A stretch of DNA of 64,000 nt from Escherichia coli (lineage in GTDB: Bacteria > Pseudomonadota > Gammaproteobacteria > Enterobacterales > Enterobacteriaceae), in NCBI RefSeq assembly GCF_030384885.1, contig NZ_CP128613.1; one strand, given 5' to 3'. Made by a program: the position numbers and the translations under genes. Shown here one piece after another: positions 3,038 through 14,679 of the stretch. The first letter of the stretch is position 1, and the number at the start of each line of letters is the position of its first letter. The notes beneath the pieces are model-generated. The model worked only from the letters and a program-made list of their open reading frames with translations. It had not been told where the DNA came from and did no database searches.

Positions 3038-3673
3038 GTGTTTTCTTATTACTTTCAAGGTCTTGCACTTGGGGCAGCTATGATCCTGCCGCTCGGTCCA
3101 CAAAATGCTTTTGTGATGAATCAGGGCATTCGTCGTCAGTACCACATTATGATTGCCTTACTTTGTGCTATCAGCGATTTGGTCCTGATTTGCGCCGGGA
3201 TTTTTGGTGGCAGTGCGTTATTGATGCAGTCGCCGTGGTTGCTTGCGCTGGTCACCTGGGGCGGCGTAGCCTTCTTGCTGTGGTATGGTTTTGGCGCTTT
3301 TAAAACCGCAATGAGCAGTAATATTGAGTTAGCCAGTGCCGAAGTCATGAAGCAAGGCAGATGGAAAATTATCGCCACCATGTTGGCAGTGACCTGGCTG
3401 AATCCGCATGTTTACCTGGATACTTTTGTGGTGCTGGGTAGCCTTGGGGGGCAGCTTGATGTTGAACCAAAACGTTGGTTTGCGCTCGGGACAATTAGCG
3501 CCTCTTTCCTGTGGTTCTTTGGTCTGGCTCTTCTCGCAGCCTGGCTGGCACCGCGCCTGCGCACGGCAAAATCACAGCGCATTATCAATCTGGTAGTGGG
3601 ATGTGTTATGTGGTTTATTGCCTTGCAGCTGGCGAGAGACGGTATTGCTCATGCACAAGCCTTGTTCAGTTAG
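3038..3673 (+). CDS. argO: Arginine exporter ArgO (LysE family, 211 aa), GTG start
   Basis: Translation [25 protein letters not shown]...; LysE-type membrane protein in the position of argO/yggA. Confidence 0.9.
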
Positions 3674-3765
3674 GCGCTATCTGATGGAAAAATAAAACAG
3701 AGGCGCTAAGCTTGCCTCCAGAGGTCCTGAATTTTGGGCAAGTCAATTAACACGGAGAGACTAAC

Positions 3766-4506
3766 GTGAAGTTCAAAGTTATCGCCCTGGCGGCATTAAT
3801 GGGTATTAGCGGGATGGCAGCGCAGGCTAACGAATTGCCGGATGGACCGCATATTGTCACCTCCGGTACGGCAAGCGTGGATGCGGTGCCAGACATTGCC
3901 ACTCTTGCGATTGAAGTCAACGTGGCCGCGAAGGATGCCGCTACTGCCAAGAAACAGGCGGATGAGCGCGTCGCACAATACATTTCCTTCCTTGAACTCA
4001 ATCAGATCGCGAAAAAAGATATCAGCTCAGCGAACTTACGCACCCAGCCAGATTATGATTATCAGGATGGTAAAAGTATCCTGAAAGGCTACCGTGCTGT
4101 GAGAACGGTGGAAGTCACGCTCCGTCAGTTAGACAAACTGAATTCCTTGCTGGATGGTGCGCTGAAGGCGGGTCTTAACGAAATTCGTTCTGTATCGCTG
4201 GGCGTGGCGCAGCCGGATGCCTATAAAGACAAAGCGCGTAAGGCAGCGATTGATAACGCGATTCATCAGGCGCAGGAACTGGCGAACGGCTTTCATCGTA
4301 AACTAGGGCCGGTATATAGCGTGCGCTACCATGTTTCCAACTATCAGCCCAGCCCAATGGTGCGGATGATGAAAGCCGATGCCGCGCCGGTCTCAGCCCA
4401 GGAAACTTACGAGCAGGCTGCTATTCAGTTTGATGATCAGGTCGATGTGGTCTTCCAGTTAGAACCTGTGGATCAACAACCCGCTAAAACACCTGCCGCA
4501 CAATAA
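3766..4506 (+). CDS. yggE: YggE, periplasmic DUF541/SIMPL-family oxidative-stress protein (246 aa)
   Basis: Signal peptide MKFKVIALAALMGISGMAAQA; synteny with argO. Confidence 0.88.
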   Translation: MKFKVIALAALMGISGMAAQANELPDGPHIVTSGTASVDAVPDIATLAIEVNVAAKDAATAKKQADERVAQYISFLELNQIAKKDISSANLRTQPDYDYQDGKSILKGYRAVRTVEVTLRQLDKLNSLLDGALKAGLNEIRSVSLGVAQPDAYKDKARKAAIDNAIHQAQELANGFHRKLGPVYSVRYHVSNYQPSPMVRMMKADAAPVSAQETYEQAAIQFDDQVDVVFQLEPVDQQPAKTPAAQ

Positions 4507-4673
4507 TACTTGTAGCCCGACGTATTGGTCGGGCTAATGCCTTTACCCGATATTGCCTCCTTTTTCTGTAATTTTCTGTAAAACCATGACGTAATCACCT
4601 ATCTTTGCTCGCGGTTTCATCAAGGATAGGCTGACTGAAACGGTTAAGCGGACAAGGATGCGGGGGAGCGGGG

Positions 4674-5570
4674 ATGGACATTTTTATTTCGAAAAAGATG
4701 CGCAATTTCATTTTATTAGCGCAAACCAATAATATTGCCCGGGCGGCAGAAAAAATCCATATGACGGCTTCGCCATTTGGCAAAAGCATTGCCGCGCTGG
4801 AAGAACAAATTGGCTATACGCTATTTACCCGCAAAGATAATAATATCAGCCTCAATAAAGCCGGGCAGGAACTGTATCAAAAACTGTTCCCGGTTTATCA
4901 ACGGCTTTCTGCGATTGATAATGAAATCCATAACTCAGGACGTCGTTCACGAGAAATTGTGATAGGCATAGATAATACTTATCCGACCATTATTTTTGAT
5001 CAGTTGATTAGTCTCGGAGATAAGTACGAAGGCGTGACCGCCCAGCCAGTTGAGTTCAGCGAAAACGGCGTTATCGATAATCTTTTTGACCGTCAGTTAG
5101 ATTTTATAATCTCCCCACAGCATGTATCTGCACGAGTTCAGGAACTGGAAAACCTGACTATCAGTGAACTACCACCGCTGCGATTGGGCTTTCTCGTTTC
5201 TCGCCGTTATGAAGAGCGACAAGAGCAAGAGTTGCTTCAGGAGCTACCGTGGCTACAAATGCGCTTTCAGAACCGGGCCAACTTCGAAGCAATGATTGAT
5301 GCGAATATGCGTCCTTGTGGGATCAATCCCACCATTATTTATCGACCTTACAGTTTTATGGCCAAAATCAGCGCCGTGGAGCGCGGACATTTTCTGACGG
5401 TGATCCCGCATTTTGCCTGGCGACTGGTGAATCCGGCAACGCTGAAATATTTTGATGCGCCGCACAAGCCGATGTATATGCAGGAATATCTTTATTCAAT
5501 CAGAAATCATCGATATACCGCCACGATGCTTCAGCATATTGCTGAAGATCGTGACGGGACGAGTCATTAA
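4674..5570 (+). CDS. ygfI: LysR-family transcriptional regulator YgfI (298 aa)
   Basis: N-terminal HTH (NIARAAEKIHMTASPFGKSIAALEEQIG) and LysR substrate-binding domain; sits next to the sbm operon. Confidence 0.85.
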   Translation: MDIFISKKMRNFILLAQTNNIARAAEKIHMTASPFGKSIAALEEQIGYTLFTRKDNNISLNKAGQELYQKLFPVYQRLSAIDNEIHNSGRRSREIVIGIDNTYPTIIFDQLISLGDKYEGVTAQPVEFSENGVIDNLFDRQLDFIISPQHVSARVQELENLTISELPPLRLGFLVSRRYEERQEQELLQELPWLQMRFQNRANFEAMIDANMRPCGINPTIIYRPYSFMAKISAVERGHFLTVIPHFAWRLVNPATLKYFDAPHKPMYMQEYLYSIRNHRYTATMLQHIAEDRDGTSH

Positions 5571-7045
5571 CCCAGCATCGAGCCGGTTGCGATTAAATTA
5601 CGGTGTAAGTCAAAGACGTGGCTAAGATCGTGGTGAATATGTCCGCCGGGCGCATTTTCCAGATAGCGATGCAGATAATCCCGATACATAGGATGTGCAC
5701 AATTATCAATGATGGTGCGGGCGCGTTGAAGCGGGGAAAGACCACGCAGATCGGCGATCCCTTGTTCGGTGATGATCACTTTGACGCTGTGTTCGCTGTG
5801 ATCAACATGGCTGCACATTGGCACGACGGTTGAGATCTTGCCTTCTTTAGCAATCGACGGGGCCATAAAGATCGACAGATACGCGTTGCGTTCAAAATCA
5901 CCGCTGCCACCGATGCCGTTCATCAGATCGACCCCGGCTACGTGCGTTGAGTTGGCATGCCCGTAAATATCAAACTCCAGGCCGACGTTCAGAGCGATGA
6001 CGCCCAGACGACGGATGATTTCCGGGTTATTGGAAATCTCCTGCGGACGCAACACAATGCGGCTGGCAAAGTAATCCATATTGTCGTAAATCTTGCGCAG
6101 GGAATCGGCCGAGATAGTCAGGCTGGAGGCGCTGGCCCCGCTGATTTTGCCCGTTTCCAGTAAATGCACCACCGATTCCTGTAGCACTTCCGAATACATC
6201 ATGAACGGAGGAATTTCCGGGTTTTCCCCTAGTCGCGCCATGACTGCATTATTGATATTGCCCACGCCACTTTGCAGCGGCAGAAATTCCGGCGGAATAC
6301 GCCCATGCGCCATTTCCTGCAACAAGAACGTGACCACGTTATCGGCAATCTGCTGGCACATGGGATTTTGCTTATCCAGCATATTACCGGCGTCGGGCAA
6401 GTTGGTTTCCACGACGGCGACAATCTTTTTCGGATCGATTTGCACATAGCGGGTACCGACGCGATCCATTGCATGGAAGATCGACACGCTATTGCGCCGC
6501 GGTGGCGCGCCAGGAATCACAATATCCGCCAGTTCTGCAACGCGCGGATCGTGATAGTGATTGAGTTCAATGATCACTTTCTTCGCCCGCAGCAGCCAGG
6601 TCGGCGCATTACCGATCCCGCTGGTTAACCAGACTCGACCATCCGGTGCCAGTGCCGATGCTTCAATGACGGCAACATCAATTTCGCCGAAGAAACCGTA
6701 ATTGACCATTTGCGCCACTTCGCTCAAATGCAGGTCAACGAAACTCACCGCGCCCTGATTGATCTTTTTACGTAAACCGGACGATGTTTGATATGGCGCA
6801 CGCCAGGAAACAGCATCGGCGTCAGAAAGTACATCGTCAGCGGCGGCGCTGATTGACGCCCCCGTCAGCAGGCGGATTTGATACGGCTTTTTGGCCTCAT
6901 GCTGTTCGTTAGCTCTGCGGGCAATCGCGTTGGGTAGGGCTTTCGGCGAACCCGCCGGGGTAAAGCCGCTAAATGCCACCATGTCGTTATGCTGGATAAT
7001 TTCTGCCGCTTCATCGGCGGTCATCCTTGTCCACTGAGTTTCCAT
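5567..7045 (-). CDS. scpC: Propionyl-CoA:succinate CoA-transferase (492 aa)
   Basis: Acetyl-CoA hydrolase/transferase-family sequence; last gene of the sbm-argK-scpB-scpC operon. Confidence 0.92.
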   Translation of the reverse strand: METQWTRMTADEAAEIIQHNDMVAFSGFTPAGSPKALPNAIARRANEQHEAKKPYQIRLLTGASISAAADDVLSDADAVSWRAPYQTSSGLRKKINQGAVSFVDLHLSEVAQMVNYGFFGEIDVAVIEASALAPDGRVWLTSGIGNAPTWLLRAKKVIIELNHYHDPRVAELADIVIPGAPPRRNSVSIFHAMDRVGTRYVQIDPKKIVAVVETNLPDAGNMLDKQNPMCQQIADNVVTFLLQEMAHGRIPPEFLPLQSGVGNINNAVMARLGENPEIPPFMMYSEVLQESVVHLLETGKISGASASSLTISADSLRKIYDNMDYFASRIVLRPQEISNNPEIIRRLGVIALNVGLEFDIYGHANSTHVAGVDLMNGIGGSGDFERNAYLSIFMAPSIAKEGKISTVVPMCSHVDHSEHSVKVIITEQGIADLRGLSPLQRARTIIDNCAHPMYRDYLHRYLENAPGGHIHHDLSHVFDLHRNLIATGSMLG

Positions 7046-7068
7046 TTTTACTCCTTCGATCGCAGGGA

Positions 7069-7854
7069 TTAATGACCAACGAAATTAGGTTTACGTTTTT
7101 CGAGGAAAGCGTTCATCCCTTCCTGGTAATCTTCGCTGTCATAAACCGCGCGGCGCATCCCCTGAATACGTTCAAATTCATCGGAGTTCATGGTGTGCGC
7201 TTCGCCCAGTACACGCAGTTCTTCTTTGATAACGGCAATGGCTAACGGCGCTTTCTCAGAGATGTGGTGCGCCATTTGTAAGGTGAAATCTTCCAGTTCT
7301 TCCACTTCCACAACATGGTTGAGGATGCCGACAGCCAGCGCGCGCTGGGCTGTGATTGGCGAAGCGGTAAAAATCAGCTCTTTGACAATGTGGAAGCCCG
7401 CGTCGCGGGTCAGGTTGTGAATGCCGACCAGGTTATACGGGACGCCGAGGTTTACAGGCGTCATTGAGAAGGTTGAGGTACTGGCGGCGATGATCAGATC
7501 GGAACTCATGATCATTTCAAATGCGCCCCCCCAAACACTACCTTCCACCATCGAAATGATCGGTTTCGGGAATTTTTGGATCATGCGGGTGATTTGACGC
7601 AACGGATCATCATAGGAGAGCGGATCGCGACCGCCAGACGGCAGTTCGTGAATATCGTGACCTGCGGAGAAGACTTTGGATCCACTCGGCGCGCGCAAAA
7701 TGATACAGCGAATTTCCGGCCGGTTGAGATCGCTTAATGCCTGCATAAGATCATCAATAAAGACTTTACTTAAGGCATTAAGTTTTCGGCCATAGTTAAA
7801 CTCAATGACCGCCACTTTGTTGATAGTGACAACGTTCACATACTGATAAGACAT
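7069..7854 (-). CDS. scpB: Methylmalonyl-CoA decarboxylase (crotonase fold, 261 aa)
   Basis: Begins MSYQYVNVVTINKVAVIEFNYGRKLNALSK; start 7854 chosen rather than the track's upstream ATG 7896. Confidence 0.9.
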   Translation of the reverse strand: MSYQYVNVVTINKVAVIEFNYGRKLNALSKVFIDDLMQALSDLNRPEIRCIILRAPSGSKVFSAGHDIHELPSGGRDPLSYDDPLRQITRMIQKFPKPIISMVEGSVWGGAFEMIMSSDLIIAASTSTFSMTPVNLGVPYNLVGIHNLTRDAGFHIVKELIFTASPITAQRALAVGILNHVVEVEELEDFTLQMAHHISEKAPLAIAVIKEELRVLGEAHTMNSDEFERIQGMRRAVYDSEDYQEGMNAFLEKRKPNFVGH

Positions 7855-7864
7855 AAAAATTCCT

Positions 7865-8860
7865 TTAATCAAAATATTGCGTCTGGATAAATTCACTGAG
7901 CTGTCGCAGGCCGGTGCGCGGTGAGAGCGTATTGTTTTTGACCGCTAAAAGCGTCTGGCGGTAATAGCGATCGAAATCTTCATTCGCGAACAGGTGATTC
8001 AGTACTTCTTCTTCGGTTTGTTTACGCAGCCATTCCACCGATTGTTGTTGCCGCACTTGCTGTAAACGACCACTGGCAGTTAGCGCGGTTTTGAAGTCGA
8101 TGATGGCGTGCCAGATCTCATCGATTCCACGTTTTTCCAGTGCGCTACAAGTCAGAACTCGTGGCTGCCATTCGTCGTATTTACGTCGCAGAATATGCAG
8201 GGCACTCTCGTACATATGCCGGGCAATGGCGACATTGGTATGGTTATCGCCATCGTCTTTGTTGATAACGATCAGATCTGCCACTTCCATCAGCCCCTTT
8301 TTAATCCCCTGCAGATCATCGCCGCCACCGGCAATTTGCAACGAGATAAAACAGTCCACCATGCGGGCAACTTCCGTTTCCGACTGTCCGACGCCAACCG
8401 TTTCGACAATCACTACGTCATAACCCGCCGCTTCGCATAACAGCATTAATTCCCGCGCTCGCTGACTGGCACCGCCCAGATGGCCGGAGGATGGTACCGG
8501 GCGAATAAACGCCGCCTCGGCACGCGCCAGGTCATTCATGCGGGTTTTATCCCCGAGAATGCTACCGCCAGTGACCGGGCTGCTGGGATCGACCGCAATA
8601 ACTGCAACCTTTAATCCCTCACGAATCAACAACATGCCAAAGGCTTCAAGAAAGGTACTTTTCCCCGCGCCGGGTGTGCCGGTAACACCCAGTCGCAGGG
8701 CGTTACCACAGAACGGCATAATGGCATCAAGCAGTTGCGTACTTAGCGCCTGATGACGCGGGTGACGGCTTTCCACCAGCGTCATGGCCTGGGCGAGCGT
8801 GGCACGCTCACCCTGACGTAAGCGGCGAATACTTTCTGCCAGCGTGGCTTCATTAATCAT
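7865..8860 (-). CDS. argK: MeaB/ArgK-type GTPase, methylmalonyl-CoA mutase accessory protein (331 aa)
   Basis: P-loop GTPGAGKST; overlaps the scpA stop by 8 nt. Confidence 0.92.
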
Positions 8861-10997
8861 GATGCTGGCTTATCAGATTCAGTACGTCGCGCACGCTGTC
8901 GAGCATAGGCGTACCTGGACCATAAATCGCCGCCACGCCGCGCTCCTGCAGGAAGGCGTAATCCTGCGGTGGAATGACGCCACCCGCGACCACGAAAATA
9001 TCTTCGCGATTCCATTTCTTCAGCGCTTCGACCAGTTCCGGGATCAGCGTTTTATGACCGGCAGCCAGTGAAGATGCGCCCACTATGTGAACGTCGTTTT
9101 CTACTGCCAGGCGGGCGATCTCTTCAGGTGTAGAGAACATCGGGCTTAAATCTACGTCGAAACCGAGATCGGAATAGGCGCTGGCGATCACTTTCGCGCC
9201 GCGATCGTGCCCATCCTGGCCCATTTTGGCGATCAGAATGCGCGGGCGACGACCATTGTCGGCAAGGAACTGCTCTGTTTGCGCAACAATGGCATCGAAC
9301 TCGGAGGCCGATTTTTCCGACTGATGATAGCTTTGCGCAATTACGCCGGTAACACACTGGCTTGGCACCAGATAACGGTCAAAAGCGGCTTCCAGCGCAT
9401 CGGATATTTCACCCAGGGTGGCGCGAACGCGAGCGGCATTAACAGCGGCAGCCAGCAGGTTTTCGTTATGCTGTGCGGCGTGAGTCAGGGCGTTCAACGC
9501 GGCGGTTACGGCGGCATCATCACGGGTGGCGCGAATGCGTTCCAGCGAAGCAATTTGCTCGTTACGCACCATCACGTTGTCGATCTCAAGTACATCGGTT
9601 TCGTCTTCGTGATCCAGTTTGTACTTGTTGACACCAACGATGACACGCTTGCCCTGGTCGATCAACGACTGTTCGCGCGCGGAGGCCTCTTCGATCATTC
9701 GTTTTGGCAGACCTGCTTCGATCGCTTTCGCCATGCCACCGGCTTCGTCGATCTGTTGGATAATGGCTCTGGCTTGTTTGACGATTTGATCGGTCAGCGA
9801 TTCAACGTAATAGGATCCGGCCAGTGGATCGACGGTGCGGCAGAGTTCTGATTCTTCCTGAATGATGATCTGGGTATTGCGGGCAATGCGTGCTGAGAAA
9901 TCGGTAGGCAAACCAAGCGCTTCATCAAAGGCGTTGGTATGCAGTGACTGAGTACCGCCCAGCGTTGCAGCCAGTGCTTCAATGGTGGTGCGGATAACGT
10001 TGTTATACGGATCCTGTTCAGTCAGGCTCCAGCCTGAGGTCTGGCAGTGGGTACGCAGCGCCAGTGATTTCGGATCCTGTGCGCCAAATCCACTGACCGC
10101 TTCGCTCCATAAATAACGTGCCGCACGCAACATGGCGACGTTCATAAACAGATCCATGCCAATGCCGAAGAAAAACGACAGGCGAGGAGCGAAGTCATCA
10201 ATTTTCAGCCCAGCGGAGATTGCTGCTTTGATGTACTCAATCCCATCAGCGAGCGTAAATGCTACCTGCTGCACGCAGTTGGCACCCGCTTCACCCATAT
10301 GGTAACCGCTGATACTGATGGTATTAAAGCGAGGCATGTTGCCAGAACACCAGGCAATGATGTCTGCGATAATACGCATTGACGGTTTCGGCGGGTAAAT
10401 ATAGGTGTTGCGGCAGAGATACTCTTTGAGGATATCGTTCTGAATGGTGCCTGTCAGTTTATCGGGCGTAACTCCTTGCTCTTCTGCGGCGACGATATAA
10501 AACGCCAGTACGGGTAACACTGCGCCATTCATGGTCATCGAAACCGACATTTTATCCAGCGGGATCTGGTCGAACAGGACTTTCATATCTTCCACGGTGT
10601 CGATAGCAACGCCCGCTTTGCCGACGTCGCCCGCCACGCGCGGGTTATCGGAGTCGTAGCCACGGTGGGTGGCAAGGTCAAACGCAACGGAAAGACCTTT
10701 TTGCCCGGCGGCCAGGTTACGGCGATAAAAAGCGTTGGACTCTTTTGCTGTTGAAAAACCAGCATACTGACGGATGGTCCACGGTTGGGCGGTATACATA
10801 GTGGCACGCGGGCCACGAACGTAGGGTGGCAAACCAGGAAGGGTACCGGTCACTTCCAGATTATCGAGATCGGCTTCAGTATACAGCGGCTTGATGGCGA
10901 TCCCTTCTGCGGTTTGCTGAACCAGCGAGTCGACAGTTTTCTCCCGACGGCTCAATTCCTTGTTGGCAAGCTGTTGCCACTCCTGCACGTTAGACAT
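8853..10997 (-). CDS. scpA: Methylmalonyl-CoA mutase (cobalamin-dependent, 'sleeping beauty mutase', 714 aa)
   Basis: Begins [24 protein letters not shown]; C-terminal B12-binding domain (DxHxxG-type, ...[13 protein letters not shown]...). Confidence 0.93.
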
Positions 10998-11200
10998 TAT
11001 TTGCTCCATAAAACGCAATCAAAATGAGGGTATTTGCGCTTACGGTGAGCTTTTTACGTGGGTTTGTCGCCAGCAAAAAAAATGCATTCAGACGTCGTTT
11101 TTTGCCGCCTGAGATTTGTCTATTTTGTGATGTGATTCAAGGAATACAAAAAGAACTGGAGGTGATGCCTGGTATGTATTACCAGGCATTATTTGATGGA

Positions 11201-12094
11201 TTATTCCTGACGAAGAACTTTGTGACCATAATCGAGCAACGCATCAGTGACTTTACGCATCATGCGGCTTTCAGGAGCAAAGCGGTGCCAGTAGAGCATC
11301 CGGCGTTGAAATAGCCCTGGCGTTAAGTCAATCAGTTCGCCGCTGGCCAGTTCTTTCTCGATTTGCAGATGTGGGATCATACAGCAGGTGGTCCCCTGAC
11401 GAGCAAGTTGCACGAACGCTTCTGAAGAATTAACGATATGGCAGGGTACGCTGCCTGGAGGCAGATCAAAGTTTTGCTGCAAAAAGGCCTGGTGCATATC
11501 ATCAAGATGGTCAAACGCGACCACTGGCGCTTTCAGTAATGCCGAACGCGTTACGCCGTTAGGGAAATATTTTTCGGCGAACGGTTTTGAGCTGACGAAC
11601 AGATAGTCGAGCGCACCGAGCTTATCGACAAGACAACTCGGTAGCGCCTGATGTTGAATACTCACCGCGCCGACCACTTCGCCGCGACGCAGACGTTCCT
11701 GAGTGCGGGTTTCATCTTCTACCTGCAAGTTGAGGCGGATAGGCGAATCAGCTAACACAGGAGCCAGCGCCGGAAGCAACCACGTCGCCAGACTGTCAGC
11801 GTTGACCGCCAGTGAAAGCAGCAGCGGAGTTGAACCGGTTTGTTCATCGCCCAGCCACTCTTCTTCCAGTAACTCCACCTGGCGTAGCAGTGCCAGCAGT
11901 TTTTGCCCTTGTTCCGTCGGGCGCGGCGGTACGGTACGCACCAACAGCGGCTGCCCGAACATATTTTCCAGTTGCTTAATGCGCTGTGAGACGGCTGATT
12001 GTGTAATGCACAGCTTTTGTGCCGCGCGCTCAAATCCTCGTTCACGTATCACCGCATCCAGTGCCTGTAATGTTCTGTAGTCCGGGCGTTTCAT
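11201..12094 (-). CDS. argP: LysR-family regulator ArgP/IciA (297 aa)
   Basis: Begins [43 protein letters not shown]; the 22-codon upstream extension in the track is rejected. Confidence 0.92.
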
Positions 12095-12368
12095 TGCTGT
12101 TGTCTGCTCCTGGTAAATGCTTTTTCCTGCACTATGACACAATTTTGCGTCAGGTTGCATATACCGAAGCCGTCGGCGGGTACATTTGTATCAGTGGTTA
12201 AACACGCAGCTTAAAAGATCAGGGATTTGCGCTATTGCATTTCGCTCAGCGAGTTCGCGCCCTGGAGCGGCATACCCAGAACTTTATATGCTTTGTTTGC
12301 GGGGCGAAAGTTTATGGATGAGTTAACCACGCGACTTGCCAACGGGGTCTGAATCGCTTTTTTTTGTA

Positions 12369-12494
12369 TATACTCGTCATACTTCAAGTTGCATGTGCTG
12401 CGTCTGCGTTCGCTCACCCCAGTCACTTACTTCTGTAAGCTCCTGGGGATTCACTCTCTTGTCGCCTTCCTGCAACTCGAATTATTTAGAGTAT
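12369..12494 (-). repeat. ERIC/IRU element, inverted copy
   Basis: Reverse complement of 617-742 with 2 mismatches; lies in the argP-rpiA intergenic region. Confidence 0.9.
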
Positions 12495-12531
12495 AATGCG
12501 AGTGAAATTTCATACCACAGGCGAAACGATC

Positions 12532-13191
12532 ATGACGCAGGATGAATTGAAAAAAGCAGTAGGATGGGCGGCACTTCAGTATGTTCAGCCCGGCACCATT
12601 GTTGGTGTAGGTACAGGTTCCACCGCCGCACACTTTATTGACGCGCTCGGCACGATGAAAGGCCAGATTGAAGGGGCCGTTTCCAGTTCGGATGCGTCCA
12701 CTGAAAAACTGAAAAGCCTCGGCATTCACGTTTTTGATCTCAACGAAGTCGACAGCCTTGGCATCTACGTCGACGGTGCAGATGAAATCAACGGCCACAT
12801 GCAGATGATCAAAGGCGGCGGCGCGGCGCTGACCCGTGAAAAAATCATTGCTTCGGTTGCGGAAAAATTTATCTGTATTGCAGACGCTTCTAAGCAGGTT
12901 GATATTCTGGGCAAATTCCCGCTGCCAGTAGAAGTTATCCCGATGGCACGTAGTGCAGTGGCGCGCCAGCTGGTGAAACTGGGCGGTCGTCCGGAATACC
13001 GCCAGGGCGTGGTGACCGATAACGGCAACGTGATCCTCGACGTCCACGGCATGGAAATCCTTGACCCAATAGCGATGGAAAACGCCATAAATGCGATTCC
13101 GGGCGTGGTGACTGTTGGCTTATTTGCTAACCGTGGCGCGGACGTTGCGCTGATTGGCACACCTGACGGTGTCAAAACCATTGTGAAATGA
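12532..13191 (+). CDS. rpiA: Ribose-5-phosphate isomerase A (219 aa)
   Basis: Begins [39 protein letters not shown]; start 12532 sits outside the ERIC repeat (track start 12496 is inside it). Confidence 0.94.
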
Positions 13192-13195
13192 TCTG

Positions 13196-13218
13196 ACGGG
13201 GGAATCTCCCCCGTTAAA
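13196..13218. terminator. Stable hairpin after rpiA (possible terminator)
   Basis: ACGGGGGAATCTCCCCCGT palindrome; the flanking run is A-rich on the + strand, so terminator function is uncertain. Confidence 0.35.
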
Positions 13219-13446
13219 AAAATTCTCTTCGTTAAATTTGGTGACATGTGTCACGTTTTTACCTGGCTATTGTCGATTGCTCTAAATAAATCCTCTAATC
13301 CAGCATATTCATCCAAGAAAAACCTTTGCGTGATATTTCCTCAACATCGCGACGCAAACGTTCATATTGCCGCAATATTATTTTTTGATATGTTGAAAGG
13401 CGGATGCAAATCCGCACACAACATTTCAAAAGACAGGATTGGGTAA

Positions 13447-14679
13447 ATGGCAAAGGTATCGCTGGAGAAAGACAAGATTAAGTTTCTGCTGGTAGAAGGC
13501 GTGCACCAAAAGGCGCTGGAAAGCCTTCGTGCAGCGGGTTACACCAACATCGAATTTCACAAAGGCGCGCTGGATGATGAACAATTAAAAGAATCCATCC
13601 GCGATGCCCACTTCATCGGCCTGCGATCCCGTACCCATCTGACTGAAGACGTGATCAACGCCGCAGAAAAACTGGTCGCTATTGGCTGTTTCTGTATCGG
13701 AACAAACCAGGTTGATCTGGATGCAGCTGCAAAACGCGGGATCCCGGTATTTAACGCACCGTTCTCTAATACGCGCTCTGTTGCGGAGCTGGTAATTGGC
13801 GAACTTCTGCTGCTATTGCGCGGCGTACCGGAAGCCAACGCTAAAGCGCACCGTGGTGTCTGGAACAAGCTGGCAGCTGGCTCTTTTGAAGCGCGCGGCA
13901 AAAAGCTGGGTATCATCGGCTATGGTCATATTGGTACACAGTTGGGCATTCTGGCTGAATCGCTGGGAATGTATGTTTACTTTTATGATATTGAAAACAA
14001 ACTACCGCTGGGCAACGCCACTCAGGTACAGCATCTTTCTGATCTGCTGAATATGAGCGATGTGGTGAGTTTGCATGTGCCAGAGAATCCGTCTACCAAA
14101 AATATGATGGGCGCGAAAGAGATTTCGCTAATGAAGCCCGGCTCGTTGCTGATTAATGCCTCGCGCGGAACGGTGGTGGATATTCCGGCACTGTGCGATG
14201 CGCTGGCAAGCAAGCACCTGGCTGGAGCGGCAATCGACGTATTCCCGACGGAACCGGCGACTAACAGCGATCCGTTTACCTCTCCGCTGTGCGAGTTCGA
14301 CAACGTCCTTCTGACGCCACATATTGGCGGTTCGACTCAGGAAGCACAGGAGAATATCGGCCTGGAAGTTGCAGGTAAATTAATCAAGTACTCTGACAAT
14401 GGCTCAACGCTCTCTGCGGTGAACTTCCCGGAAGTATCGCTGCCACTGCATGGTGGGCGTCGTCTGATGCACATCCACGAAAACCGTCCGGGCGTGCTAA
14501 CTGCGCTCAACAAAATTTTTGCCGAGCAGGGCGTCAACATCGCCGCGCAATATCTGCAAACTTCCGCCCAGATGGGTTATGTAGTTATTGATATTGAAGC
14601 CGACGAAGACGTTGCCGAAAAAGCTCTGCAGGCAATGAAAGCTATTCCGGGTACCATTCGCGCCCGTCTGCTGTACTAA
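13447..14679 (+). CDS. serA: D-3-phosphoglycerate dehydrogenase (410 aa)
   Basis: Begins MAKVSLEKDKIKFLLVEGVHQKALESLRAAGYTNIEFHKGALDDEQLKESIRDAHFIGLRSRT; NAD-binding GxGxxG and C-terminal ACT domain. Confidence 0.96.
   Translation: MAKVSLEKDKIKFLLVEGVHQKALESLRAAGYTNIEFHKGALDDEQLKESIRDAHFIGLRSRTHLTEDVINAAEKLVAIGCFCIGTNQVDLDAAAKRGIPVFNAPFSNTRSVAELVIGELLLLLRGVPEANAKAHRGVWNKLAAGSFEARGKKLGIIGYGHIGTQLGILAESLGMYVYFYDIENKLPLGNATQVQHLSDLLNMSDVVSLHVPENPSTKNMMGAKEISLMKPGSLLINASRGTVVDIPALCDALASKHLAGAAIDVFPTEPATNSDPFTSPLCEFDNVLLTPHIGGSTQEAQENIGLEVAGKLIKYSDNGSTLSAVNFPEVSLPLHGGRRLMHIHENRPGVLTALNKIFAEQGVNIAAQYLQTSAQMGYVVIDIEADEDVAEKALQAMKAIPGTIRARLLY

Follow-up and report, generated by a model that had tools for sequence, protein, structure and literature searches.

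Comparative evidence tying the LysR-type gene srsR (ygfI) to the sbm operon of Escherichia coli

Genes and junctions of the sbm locus

The window (the whole 64,000-nucleotide stretch of DNA analysed here) is E. coli chromosome; it matches 14 complete E. coli genomes at 100% DNA identity and K-12 at 97.5%. Positions 4674-11200 are the ordinary E. coli locus srsR(ygfI)-scpC-scpB-argK-scpA, with the known "sleeping beauty mutase" operon in the intact form that the majority of genomes carry (Table 1), and the same genes are annotated in K-12 and, by PGAP, in one of the 100%-identical genomes. The full-length region is found in 4275 of 5426 complete E. coli genomes (about four in five); a further 1114 share one common 4.3-kb deletion and have lost most of the operon.

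An earlier note on this DNA had assigned positions 7069-10997 to the whole operon together with ygfI, a span that covers scpA, argK and scpB only, with scpC and ygfI lying to the left of it. Its statement that the four reading frames are intact holds: all have the K-12 length, an ATG start, a TAA stop and zero internal stops, and all lie on the minus strand in the order mutase, MeaB GTPase, decarboxylase, CoA-transferase, as in K-12 (ORF map and PGAP annotation). The spacing, given as overlap or 10 nt, is right for the 8-nt overlap of scpA with argK and for the 10-nt gap between argK and scpB, but scpB and scpC are 23 nt apart. Nor is ygfI divergently placed; it lies 3' of scpC, is transcribed convergently, and the 3' ends overlap by 4 nt. 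Since there is no intergenic space, there is no room for a terminator between these two genes. A scan of 4300-12600 found no terminator-like site on the plus strand just past the srsR stop; for scpC, the sole one that follows sits within srsR, about 185 nt in (minus strand, 5384-5371). Directly upstream of scpA and on the same strand is argP (11201-12094), also of the LysR family, which the note had not mentioned.

Table 1. Coordinates of genes and sequence features at the sbm locus
Feature	Position in window	Strand	Evidence
srsR (ygfI), LysR-type transcription factor, 298 aa	4674..5570	+	NCBIfam NF047842 (SrsR equivalog), 635.3 bits, cut-off 425
Stop-codon overlap scpC/srsR, TTAA, 4 nt	5567..5570	.	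annotation coordinates and sequence
scpC (ygfH), propionyl-CoA:succinate CoA-transferase, 492 aa	5567..7045	-	TIGR03458 (YgfH subfamily), 754.3 bits, cut-off 658.7
scpB (ygfG), methylmalonyl-CoA decarboxylase, 261 aa	7069..7854	-	NCBIfam NF008506, 486.9 bits, cut-off 257
argK (ygfD/meaB), GTPase chaperone of the mutase, 331 aa	7865..8860	-	NCBIfam NF006958, 494.5 bits, cut-off 329
scpA (sbm), adenosylcobalamin-dependent methylmalonyl-CoA mutase, 714 aa	8853..10997	-	NCBIfam NF006944, 1250.6 bits, cut-off 876
argP-scpA intergenic region, holding the operon's control region	10998..11200	-	sequence and within-species conservation
Invariant 16-nt box TTTTTTGCTGGCGACA (consensus TTTTTTGCNNGCGACA), candidate operator or core promoter element	11065..11080	-	
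Conserved A-rich box GCAAAAAACGACG, possible -10 element	11093..11105	-	cross-species alignment
CRP/FNR-like dyad CTTGAATCACATCACA (TtTGA-N6-TCACA, or TTGAA-N4-ATCAC), candidate only	11126..11141	-	conserved across genera

All four operon proteins passed curated NCBIfam cut-offs (equivalog models for scpA, argK and scpB; the YgfH subfamily model for scpC). ScpA differs from its K-12 counterpart at 6 residues and carries the B12-binding DxHxxG motif as DGHDRG at residue 595. ArgK has 2 differences, a P-loop (GTPGAGKS) at residue 61 and a full-length match to the solved E. coli YgfD structure 2P67 (E=2.5e-218). ScpB is unchanged and matches the solved E. coli structure 1EF8 over its full length (E=1.4e-172); its true start is placed at 7854 because the profile alignment begins at residue 15 of a longer GTG reading frame. 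ScpC differs at 4 residues, and its relatives in the PDB are acetyl-CoA hydrolase/transferase family proteins, including succinyl-CoA:acetate CoA-transferases. SrsR has a single amino acid difference from K-12.

In K-12, ScpA converts succinyl-CoA to methylmalonyl-CoA with adenosylcobalamin, the GTPase ArgK/MeaB serving to load and protect the mutase, ScpB decarboxylates the product to propionyl-CoA, and ScpC moves the CoA onto a new succinate with release of propionate. The 99-100% identity to the K-12 proteins and the full-length structural matches suggest that the mutase, decarboxylase and CoA-transferase activities are also present in the window strain, and we regard the operon's identity and enzymology, taken jointly, as practically certain. 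The description of a complete succinate-to-propionate module is accurate for the four intact genes but too generous for the route. ScpA was reported to yield the (R)-methylmalonyl-CoA enantiomer, and a foreign epimerase had to be added to obtain propionate from glucose (PMC5512728); moreover, E. coli is unable to synthesize its own B12 cofactor (PMC3850637). The route depends on imported B12, and by that one published study it lacks an epimerase; the ORF map and PGAP annotation place no epimerase gene within the cassette.

The epithet "cryptic" is likewise half right, as expression of the operon is described in the literature as very weak, but its genes are not decaying. Against K-12, E. albertii, Citrobacter and K. 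oxytoca, dN/dS is 0.00-0.08 for the four operon genes and srsR, similar to the flanking argP and rpiA, and we therefore conclude that the operon genes are kept by selection.

Conserved sequence upstream of scpA

The argP-scpA spacer at 10998-11200 corresponds to NC_000913.3 3060647-3060849 in K-12. The roughly 150 nt adjoining scpA are almost invariant among E. coli genomes with the full-length operon and carry extra changes in genomes of the deletion lineage. Within this region, the invariant box has its one occurrence in the window, with zero mismatches. Of the 41 species loci covering the region, 39 have an exact copy upstream of scpA, L005 has one with a single mismatch and L044 has none, while column identity of the sequence around it averages 55%. 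The box is also absent in L048; L044 and L048 hold the two most distant SrsR orthologues. No box was found in scp cassettes that have no srsR, one of which has a divergent IclR-family gene, and a second copy near srsR, as autoregulation might use, was found in none of 42 loci. Readings of the box as a sigma-54 or a FadR/Cra-type site were rejected by eye on spacing. A comparison with the published ChIP-exo dhaK site turned up only short common strings (ACCGTAA; GGAGCAAA-TAATG at the ribosome-binding site), which were judged likely to be chance.

At the possible -10 position the sequence reads TAATAAT in Yersinia, AAAAAT or GAAAAT in Kosakonia and Aeromonas, and AAAAAC in E. coli, Citrobacter, Klebsiella and Salmonella. 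A sigma-70 scan of 4300-12600 returned fewer promoter-like sites than shuffled sequence, and just one of them is near the intergenic region, where it overlaps argP at its end. Within the window alone, CRP-type dyads are not above chance (37 matches against 27 expected at ≤2 mismatches), and the dyad upstream of scpA is kept as a candidate on the strength of its conservation. The published SrsR box TCAGATTTTGC, at ≤2 mismatches, gives 32 matches in the window against 25 expected, none of them upstream of scpA (10998-11200) or of srsR.

An A-run/T-run dyad had raised the idea of a conserved leader RNA or attenuator, which we rejected: the 128-nt fold has a z-score of only -1.9, and the stems suggested in different genera, compared by eye, neither match nor covary. 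With a permissive threshold, an Rfam scan of 3500-13500 gave one match, a repeat element that lies away from the scpA upstream region; ahead of scpA it showed neither a cobalamin riboswitch nor any other leader RNA. Kosakonia has a strong terminator-like hairpin at the leader position, which the other genera do not share.

Linkage of srsR to the operon and its decay after deletion

In every one of 42 species-level loci with an SrsR orthologue (64-99% identity), srsR directly adjoins scpC in convergent orientation, followed by scpB-argK-scpA. One of these loci (L021) is cut by a contig end, and all four operon genes are kept in the 41 that are untruncated. A Sodalis locus found separately via ScpB has the same arrangement, and its SrsR orthologue contains both LysR Pfam domains (PF00126 and PF03466). 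The flanking genes of E. coli are absent in 12 of the 42 loci, and a reading of flanking ORF translations gives at least six chromosomal contexts, which indicates that the five genes travelled as a unit. The tblastn matches to scpC and srsR end ≤12 nt apart in 37 of the 42 loci and 16-156 nt apart in the other five; in the most distant orthologues, those of L044 and L048 (61-64% identity), the spacing is 156-187 nt.

The common deletion offers a natural experiment on this linkage. In the deletion allele, carried for example by strains MS8345, FEX669 and GN03449, the stretches matching window positions 5721-9978 and 10018-10070 are missing, so that scpA loses its 3' half and scpC most of its length, and argK and scpB are gone altogether. 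Flanking genes are as in the window, and srsR, argP and the scpA promoter region are kept; unlike in the window, however, srsR carries damaging substitutions or stop codons. We compared 11 deletion-carrying with 11 full-length E. coli genomes. Segregating changes in srsR comprise 14 synonymous and 13 nonsynonymous in the deletion group (piN/piS 0.33, n=11), versus 55 and 5 in the full-length group (piN/piS 0.025, n=11), a difference with Fisher p=6e-5 in a small sample of 22 genomes and with phylogeny ignored. The deletion lineages are not independent, because the clade descends from one deletion event. In the deletion group, the flanking yggE and argP stay constrained (27 to 5). All srsR alleles of the deletion lineage are marked either by the nonsense change S92* or by P34R together with A234D, and both P34 and A234 are invariant in 43 of 43 orthologues. 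Single strains break the association in both directions: in O157:H7 strain F8492 a stop codon interrupts srsR and the operon is intact, and O104:H4 shows the reverse, with a stop codon in scpA. Overall, srsR loses constraint in E. coli lineages that have lost the operon, which supports a functional tie rather than any particular mechanism.

SrsR as a candidate regulator and comparison with known systems

Published data on SrsR lend the regulator idea no support. Genomic SELEX with the purified protein gave 10 sites, none at scp, with targets that include yfdO/yfdP, fucAO, bluR and paaZ among others. When YgfI was mapped by ChIP-exo in glucose minimal medium, 2 sites emerged (dhaK and mdtL), again none at scp; further published YgfI targets are dhaKLM, pflB and hyc, and the scp genes are not mentioned in the RNA-seq of a ygfI deletion as reported. 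The SELEX and ChIP-exo lists are the sole direct data on SrsR at scp, and they are negative; because they have no site in common, the SrsR regulon itself is unsettled. A sigma-S RNA polymerase ChIP-seq peak has been assigned to scpA (PMC4447067), and srsR mRNA rises in stationary phase (PMC9181523). In the searchable library, no paper contained "ygfI" together with "methylmalonyl-CoA mutase", and none was found with "scpA", "argK" and "CRP" together. The earlier proposal of ygfI as a natural candidate regulator thus gains from the synteny (42 of 42 loci plus Sodalis) and from the loss of constraint, and loses from these binding data.

On balance, the best overall explanation (probability roughly 0.6) is the known operon with srsR as the cassette's own regulator. 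Functional coupling of srsR to the operon is quite probable on the comparative evidence, whereas direct transcriptional control of scpA by SrsR has only slightly better than even chances. We infer the regulatory role; synteny and decay speak to the tie, not to how it works. In the proposed mechanism, srsR would be no chance neighbour but one of five genes in a cassette that moves and decays as a whole, and would most likely encode the cassette's own LysR-type regulator, working at the conserved region upstream of scpA; there, the invariant box TTTTTTGCNNGCGACA is the strongest candidate for an SrsR site. We give even odds to the fuller version, in which SrsR is a dedicated, metabolite-responsive regulator of the sbm operon acting through that box rather than a stress or dhaKLM/formate regulator. 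The operon might then "sleep" in laboratory cultures because the metabolite signal of SrsR and B12 are missing. Counted against SrsR as the cassette's regulator are the negative SELEX, ChIP-exo and RNA-seq results, the lack of a TCAGATTTTGC match in 10998-11200, the convergent position, strain F8492, the small and non-independent sample, and the missing box in L044 and L048.

Alternatively, SrsR could have no role at scp and serve, as published, in general stationary-phase, stress or glycerol-formate regulation; its adjacency to scpC would then be inherited gene order only, and the box would be read by other factors such as sigma-S polymerase, CRP or FNR, or ArgP. All published targets in both sets lie outside scp, the sigma-S peak and the conserved CRP/FNR-like dyad lie upstream of scpA, and O157:H7 keeps its operon despite a truncated srsR. 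We nevertheless consider this unlikely. Inherited gene order fails to account for five genes found together in at least six unrelated contexts, and an independent regulon should have kept srsR under constraint after the deletion, yet it is srsR, not yggE or argP, that loses it; the two target sets, moreover, do not overlap.

Coupling could also arise from convergent transcription itself, if read-through produced antisense RNA or polymerase collisions so that srsR expression would hold down scpC, or scpC expression srsR, with no SrsR binding at the scpA promoter. The 4-nt stop-codon overlap, the close tblastn ends in 37 of 42 loci and the position of the nearest scpC terminator-like site inside srsR, with none just beyond the srsR stop, all fit such an arrangement. 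It leaves the pattern at the protein level unexplained, however, as the residues changed in the deletion lineages are invariant DNA-binding-helix and effector-domain residues conserved in 43 species, and the genes stand 156-187 nt apart in L044 and L048; we therefore regard it as improbable. The view of the operon as a silent relic drifting to loss, intact here only as a matter of time, is disfavoured as scarcely credible: its very weak expression, the 1114 genomes without most of it and the scpA stop codon of O104:H4 are outweighed by dN/dS values that remain at 0.00-0.08 up to dS of about 1.5, like those of housekeeping neighbours, by the retention of all four genes in 41 of 41 untruncated species loci, and by intact catalytic motifs.

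As a textbook operon of E. coli in the form most often found, the locus itself adds nothing new, and the only new point is the comparative evidence that ties ygfI/srsR evolutionarily to it. The regulator link, if true, is of modest value. It would, with a defined regulator and operator, make testable what wakes the operon and what its role in the gut is, and it would revise the mutually inconsistent annotations of YgfI (SrsR versus DhfA). Metabolic engineers currently bypass the sbm operon promoter. The deletion with its accompanying srsR decay is a tidy system that can be scaled to thousands of genomes.

Compared with K-12 b2917-b2920 and srsR/ygfI (b2921), the window has the same order, orientation, lengths, junctions and intergenic sequences, with proteins 99-100% identical; at about 2.5% nucleotide divergence, the two are one locus seen in different strains. 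A difference lies in the argP-rpiA spacer, where the window lineage has an ERIC-type repeat instead of a portion of the yqfE remnant. The gene for a LysR regulator typically diverges from its target, and classical LysR-regulated catabolic operons have a T-N11-A site near -65. SrsR likewise belongs to the LysR family and is tightly linked to one metabolic operon, but srsR is convergent, at the far operon end and about 6 kb from the promoter to which its product may bind. The Yersinia enterocolitica-type cassette (L047) has scpA-meaB-scpB-scpC in the same order and a ScpB 74% identical; unlike the E. coli cassette, it has no srsR, an IclR-family gene divergent from scpA, and an unrelated upstream region without the invariant box. 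Compared with the propionibacterial methylmalonyl-CoA (Wood-Werkman) pathway, E. coli has the biotin-independent crotonase-type decarboxylase ScpB in place of a transcarboxylase and, by published report, no epimerase, whereas the B12-dependent mutase, the MeaB-type chaperone and the CoA-transferase step are common to both.

Gene content and integrity

The window is chromosomal E. coli DNA; over positions 4500-12300 it matches 14 complete genomes at 100% identity and K-12 at 97.5%, and the gene map was taken from the PGAP annotation of an identical genome together with the K-12 record. All five genes concerned (scpA, argK, scpB, scpC, and srsR, also named ygfI) exceed their curated NCBIfam cut-offs, have K-12 length, an ATG start, a TAA stop and no internal stops, and their proteins differ from K-12 at 0 to 6 residues. 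ScpB and ArgK match the solved E. coli structures 1EF8 and 2P67, respectively, over their full length; ScpA carries the B12-binding motif, and ArgK its P-loop. Within the operon, scpA and argK overlap by 8 nt, with gaps of 10 nt between argK and scpB and 23 nt between scpB and scpC. Gene lengths, the absence of internal stops and the catalytic motifs thus bear out the intact operon described in the earlier note. The observation is real, yet its position and orientation were misstated: the span 7069-10997 covers three of the four operon genes, leaving scpC and ygfI outside, and ygfI is not divergent but convergent with scpC, TTAA at 5567-5570 being common to both stop codons.

Coordinates of genes and features in the window
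Feature	Position	Strand	Remark
yggE	3766-4506	+	
yggE-srsR spacer	4507-4673		
srsR (ygfI)	4674-5570	+	
scpC	5567-7045	-	
Common deletion	5721-9978 and 10018-10070		
scpB	7069-7854	-	
argK/meaB	7865-8860	-	
scpA	8853-10997	-	
Invariant box	11065-11080		TTTTTTGCNNGCGACA
A-rich box	11093-11105		TAATAAT or AAAAAT in some genera; AAAAAC in E. coli group
CRP/FNR-like dyad	11126-11141		
Hairpin after argP stop	11166-11189		ATGCCTGGTA / TACCAGGCAT
argP	11201-12094	-	
Insertion in argP-rpiA spacer	12373-12496		
rpiA	12532-13191	+	

Neither new nor rare, the locus is found with its full-length region in 4275 of 5426 complete E. coli genomes, so an intact operon is the majority state and unremarkable. 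In comparisons with K-12, E. albertii, Citrobacter and K. oxytoca, the five genes have dN/dS values of 0.00-0.08, similar to the flanking argP and rpiA, which speaks strongly against reading the operon as a relic. Its published expression is very weak (PMC3850637). The description "complete succinate-to-propionate module" holds for the four intact genes but is overstated, because external B12 is reported to be needed (PMC3850637) and the epimerase step to be missing from the pathway (PMC5512728).

Three further differences from K-12 or landmarks lie nearby. The perfect 10-bp hairpin directly after the argP stop is probably the argP terminator; relative to K-12 its stem has paired changes, so that complementarity is preserved. 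The argP-rpiA spacer carries a ~124-nt insertion relative to K-12, which resembles the ERIC/IRU enterobacterial repeat; its Rfam match to 'Vibrio RNA AS5' is sub-threshold, at 41 bits where the gathering score is 96. The window's lineage also lacks ~113 nt of what remains of the yqfE pseudogene.

Synteny and the region upstream of scpA

Querying with SrsR and keeping one genome per species yielded 42 loci, from Escherichia, Citrobacter, Salmonella (subspecies arizonae and diarizonae), the Klebsiella oxytoca group, Kosakonia, six Yersinia species, an Aeromonas isolate, Superficieibacter, Yokenella, Pluralibacter and a record labelled Martelella. In all 42, srsR adjoins scpC convergently, with scpB, argK and scpA next in order (one locus ends at a contig edge). 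The E. coli flanking genes (argO/yggE, argP/rpiA) are missing in 12 of these loci, and, judged from translated flanking ORFs, the surroundings differ between Aeromonas, Superficieibacter, two Kosakonia arrangements, Yersinia and 'Martelella'; on the scpA side, the 'Martelella' locus has neighbours similar to those at the Sodalis locus. With flanks differing and the gene set constant, the five genes behave as a single transferable cassette. A second search, seeded with ScpB, added three cases: the Sodalis locus, with a convergent LysR gene 61% identical to SrsR; a Yersinia enterocolitica-type cassette (L047, 4855-10296), with a divergent IclR-family gene and srsR absent; and a metagenomic three-gene version with no adjoining regulator gene. 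The scpA-meaB-scpB-scpC set of L047 is a second, more divergent cassette, with ThrE-family genes downstream and an AT-rich, unrelated upstream region.

Aligning the scpA upstream region from 13 representative species (mean column identity 55%) revealed an invariant 16-nt block. This box occurs as a single copy per locus, and 39 of the 41 loci covering the region have it without mismatch; L005 has one mismatch and L044 lacks it. It was not found in the cassettes without srsR, nor in the two loci whose SrsR is most distant. Two more conserved blocks lie upstream of it, the A-rich box and the CRP/FNR-like dyad, the latter not above chance frequency within the window alone; they may represent a weak -10 element and a class-II activator site, respectively. 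In three Kosakonia loci (L034, L035 and L046), ~110 nt upstream of scpA, the A-rich motif lies inside a strong terminator-like hairpin followed by a T-run (in L046, ACCTGCGGCAA...TTGCCGCAGGT CTTTTTTT), immediately preceding the invariant box; this stem is absent in other genera. Upstream of srsR, the yggE-srsR spacer contains TTCTGT-N7-CTGTAAAA, kept in Escherichia, Citrobacter, Klebsiella and Salmonella, and also in Superficieibacter, where the cassette occupies another chromosomal context.

Decay of srsR alongside operon loss

One common deletion, counted with a junction-specific query, is present in 1114 of the 5426 genomes (20.5%). With it argK and scpB are lost entirely, as are the 3' half of scpA and the greater part of scpC; what remains is a 5' piece of scpA and a 153-nt 3' piece of scpC. 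We compared 11 full-length with 11 deletion genomes, drawn mainly at even spacing from hit listings, with the window, K-12 and the species representative of E. coli included. Synonymous to nonsynonymous segregating changes in srsR were 55:5 in the full-length group and 14:13 in the deletion group (piN/piS 0.025 and 0.33), against 140:8 and 27:5 for yggE and argP combined. The srsR contrast between groups gave Fisher p=6e-5 (n=11+11) and that between srsR and flanks within the deletion group p=0.01 (n=11), in a small sample with a single ancestral deletion and with tests uncorrected for phylogeny.

Premature stops in srsR occur in 5/11 deletion genomes and 1/11 full-length genomes (O157:H7). 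Without exception, deletion-lineage alleles carry either S92* (5/11) or the pair P34R and A234D. Residues P34, A234, G172, L174 and R201 are altered in deletion lineages and invariant in 43/43 orthologues, and P34, judged against the typical helix-turn-helix of LysR proteins, would lie in the DNA-recognition helix; full-length-group variants fall at variable positions. The scpA control region also has extra changes in the deletion group. If the value of srsR to the cell depended on the operon, such decay would be predicted. Among individual genomes, O157:H7 F8492 has srsR W193* with an intact operon, W193* recurs in three deletion-lineage genomes, and O104:H4 2009EL-2071, with the full-length region, has an internal stop in scpA and an intact srsR.

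SrsR as a candidate regulator

Genomic SELEX, from which the name SrsR derives, reported stationary-phase induction and 10 sites, including yfdO/yfdP, fucA/fucP, bluR and paaZ/paaA (PMC9181523). The name DhfA comes from ChIP-exo, which placed two YgfI sites at dhaK and mdtL in a study that also analysed deletion-mutant RNA-seq (PMC8464067 supplement, PMC9068703). The two site lists share no entry, the scp genes are unmentioned in both studies, and our literature search returned no paper pairing 'ygfI' with 'methylmalonyl-CoA mutase'. Sigma-S polymerase ChIP-seq assigned one peak to scpA (PMC4447067); with a coordinate offset inferred from the yggE entry of the same table, its position would be some 120-275 nt upstream of where scpA begins.

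The proposal of ygfI as scp regulator thus meets two negative published screens and no direct support for regulation on one side, and a comparative tie to the operon on the other. We consider direct regulation of the scp operon by SrsR about an even bet. A functional tie between srsR and the operon is likely, because synteny in differing contexts, the cassette-specific invariant box and co-decay point to it as three independent lines of comparison.
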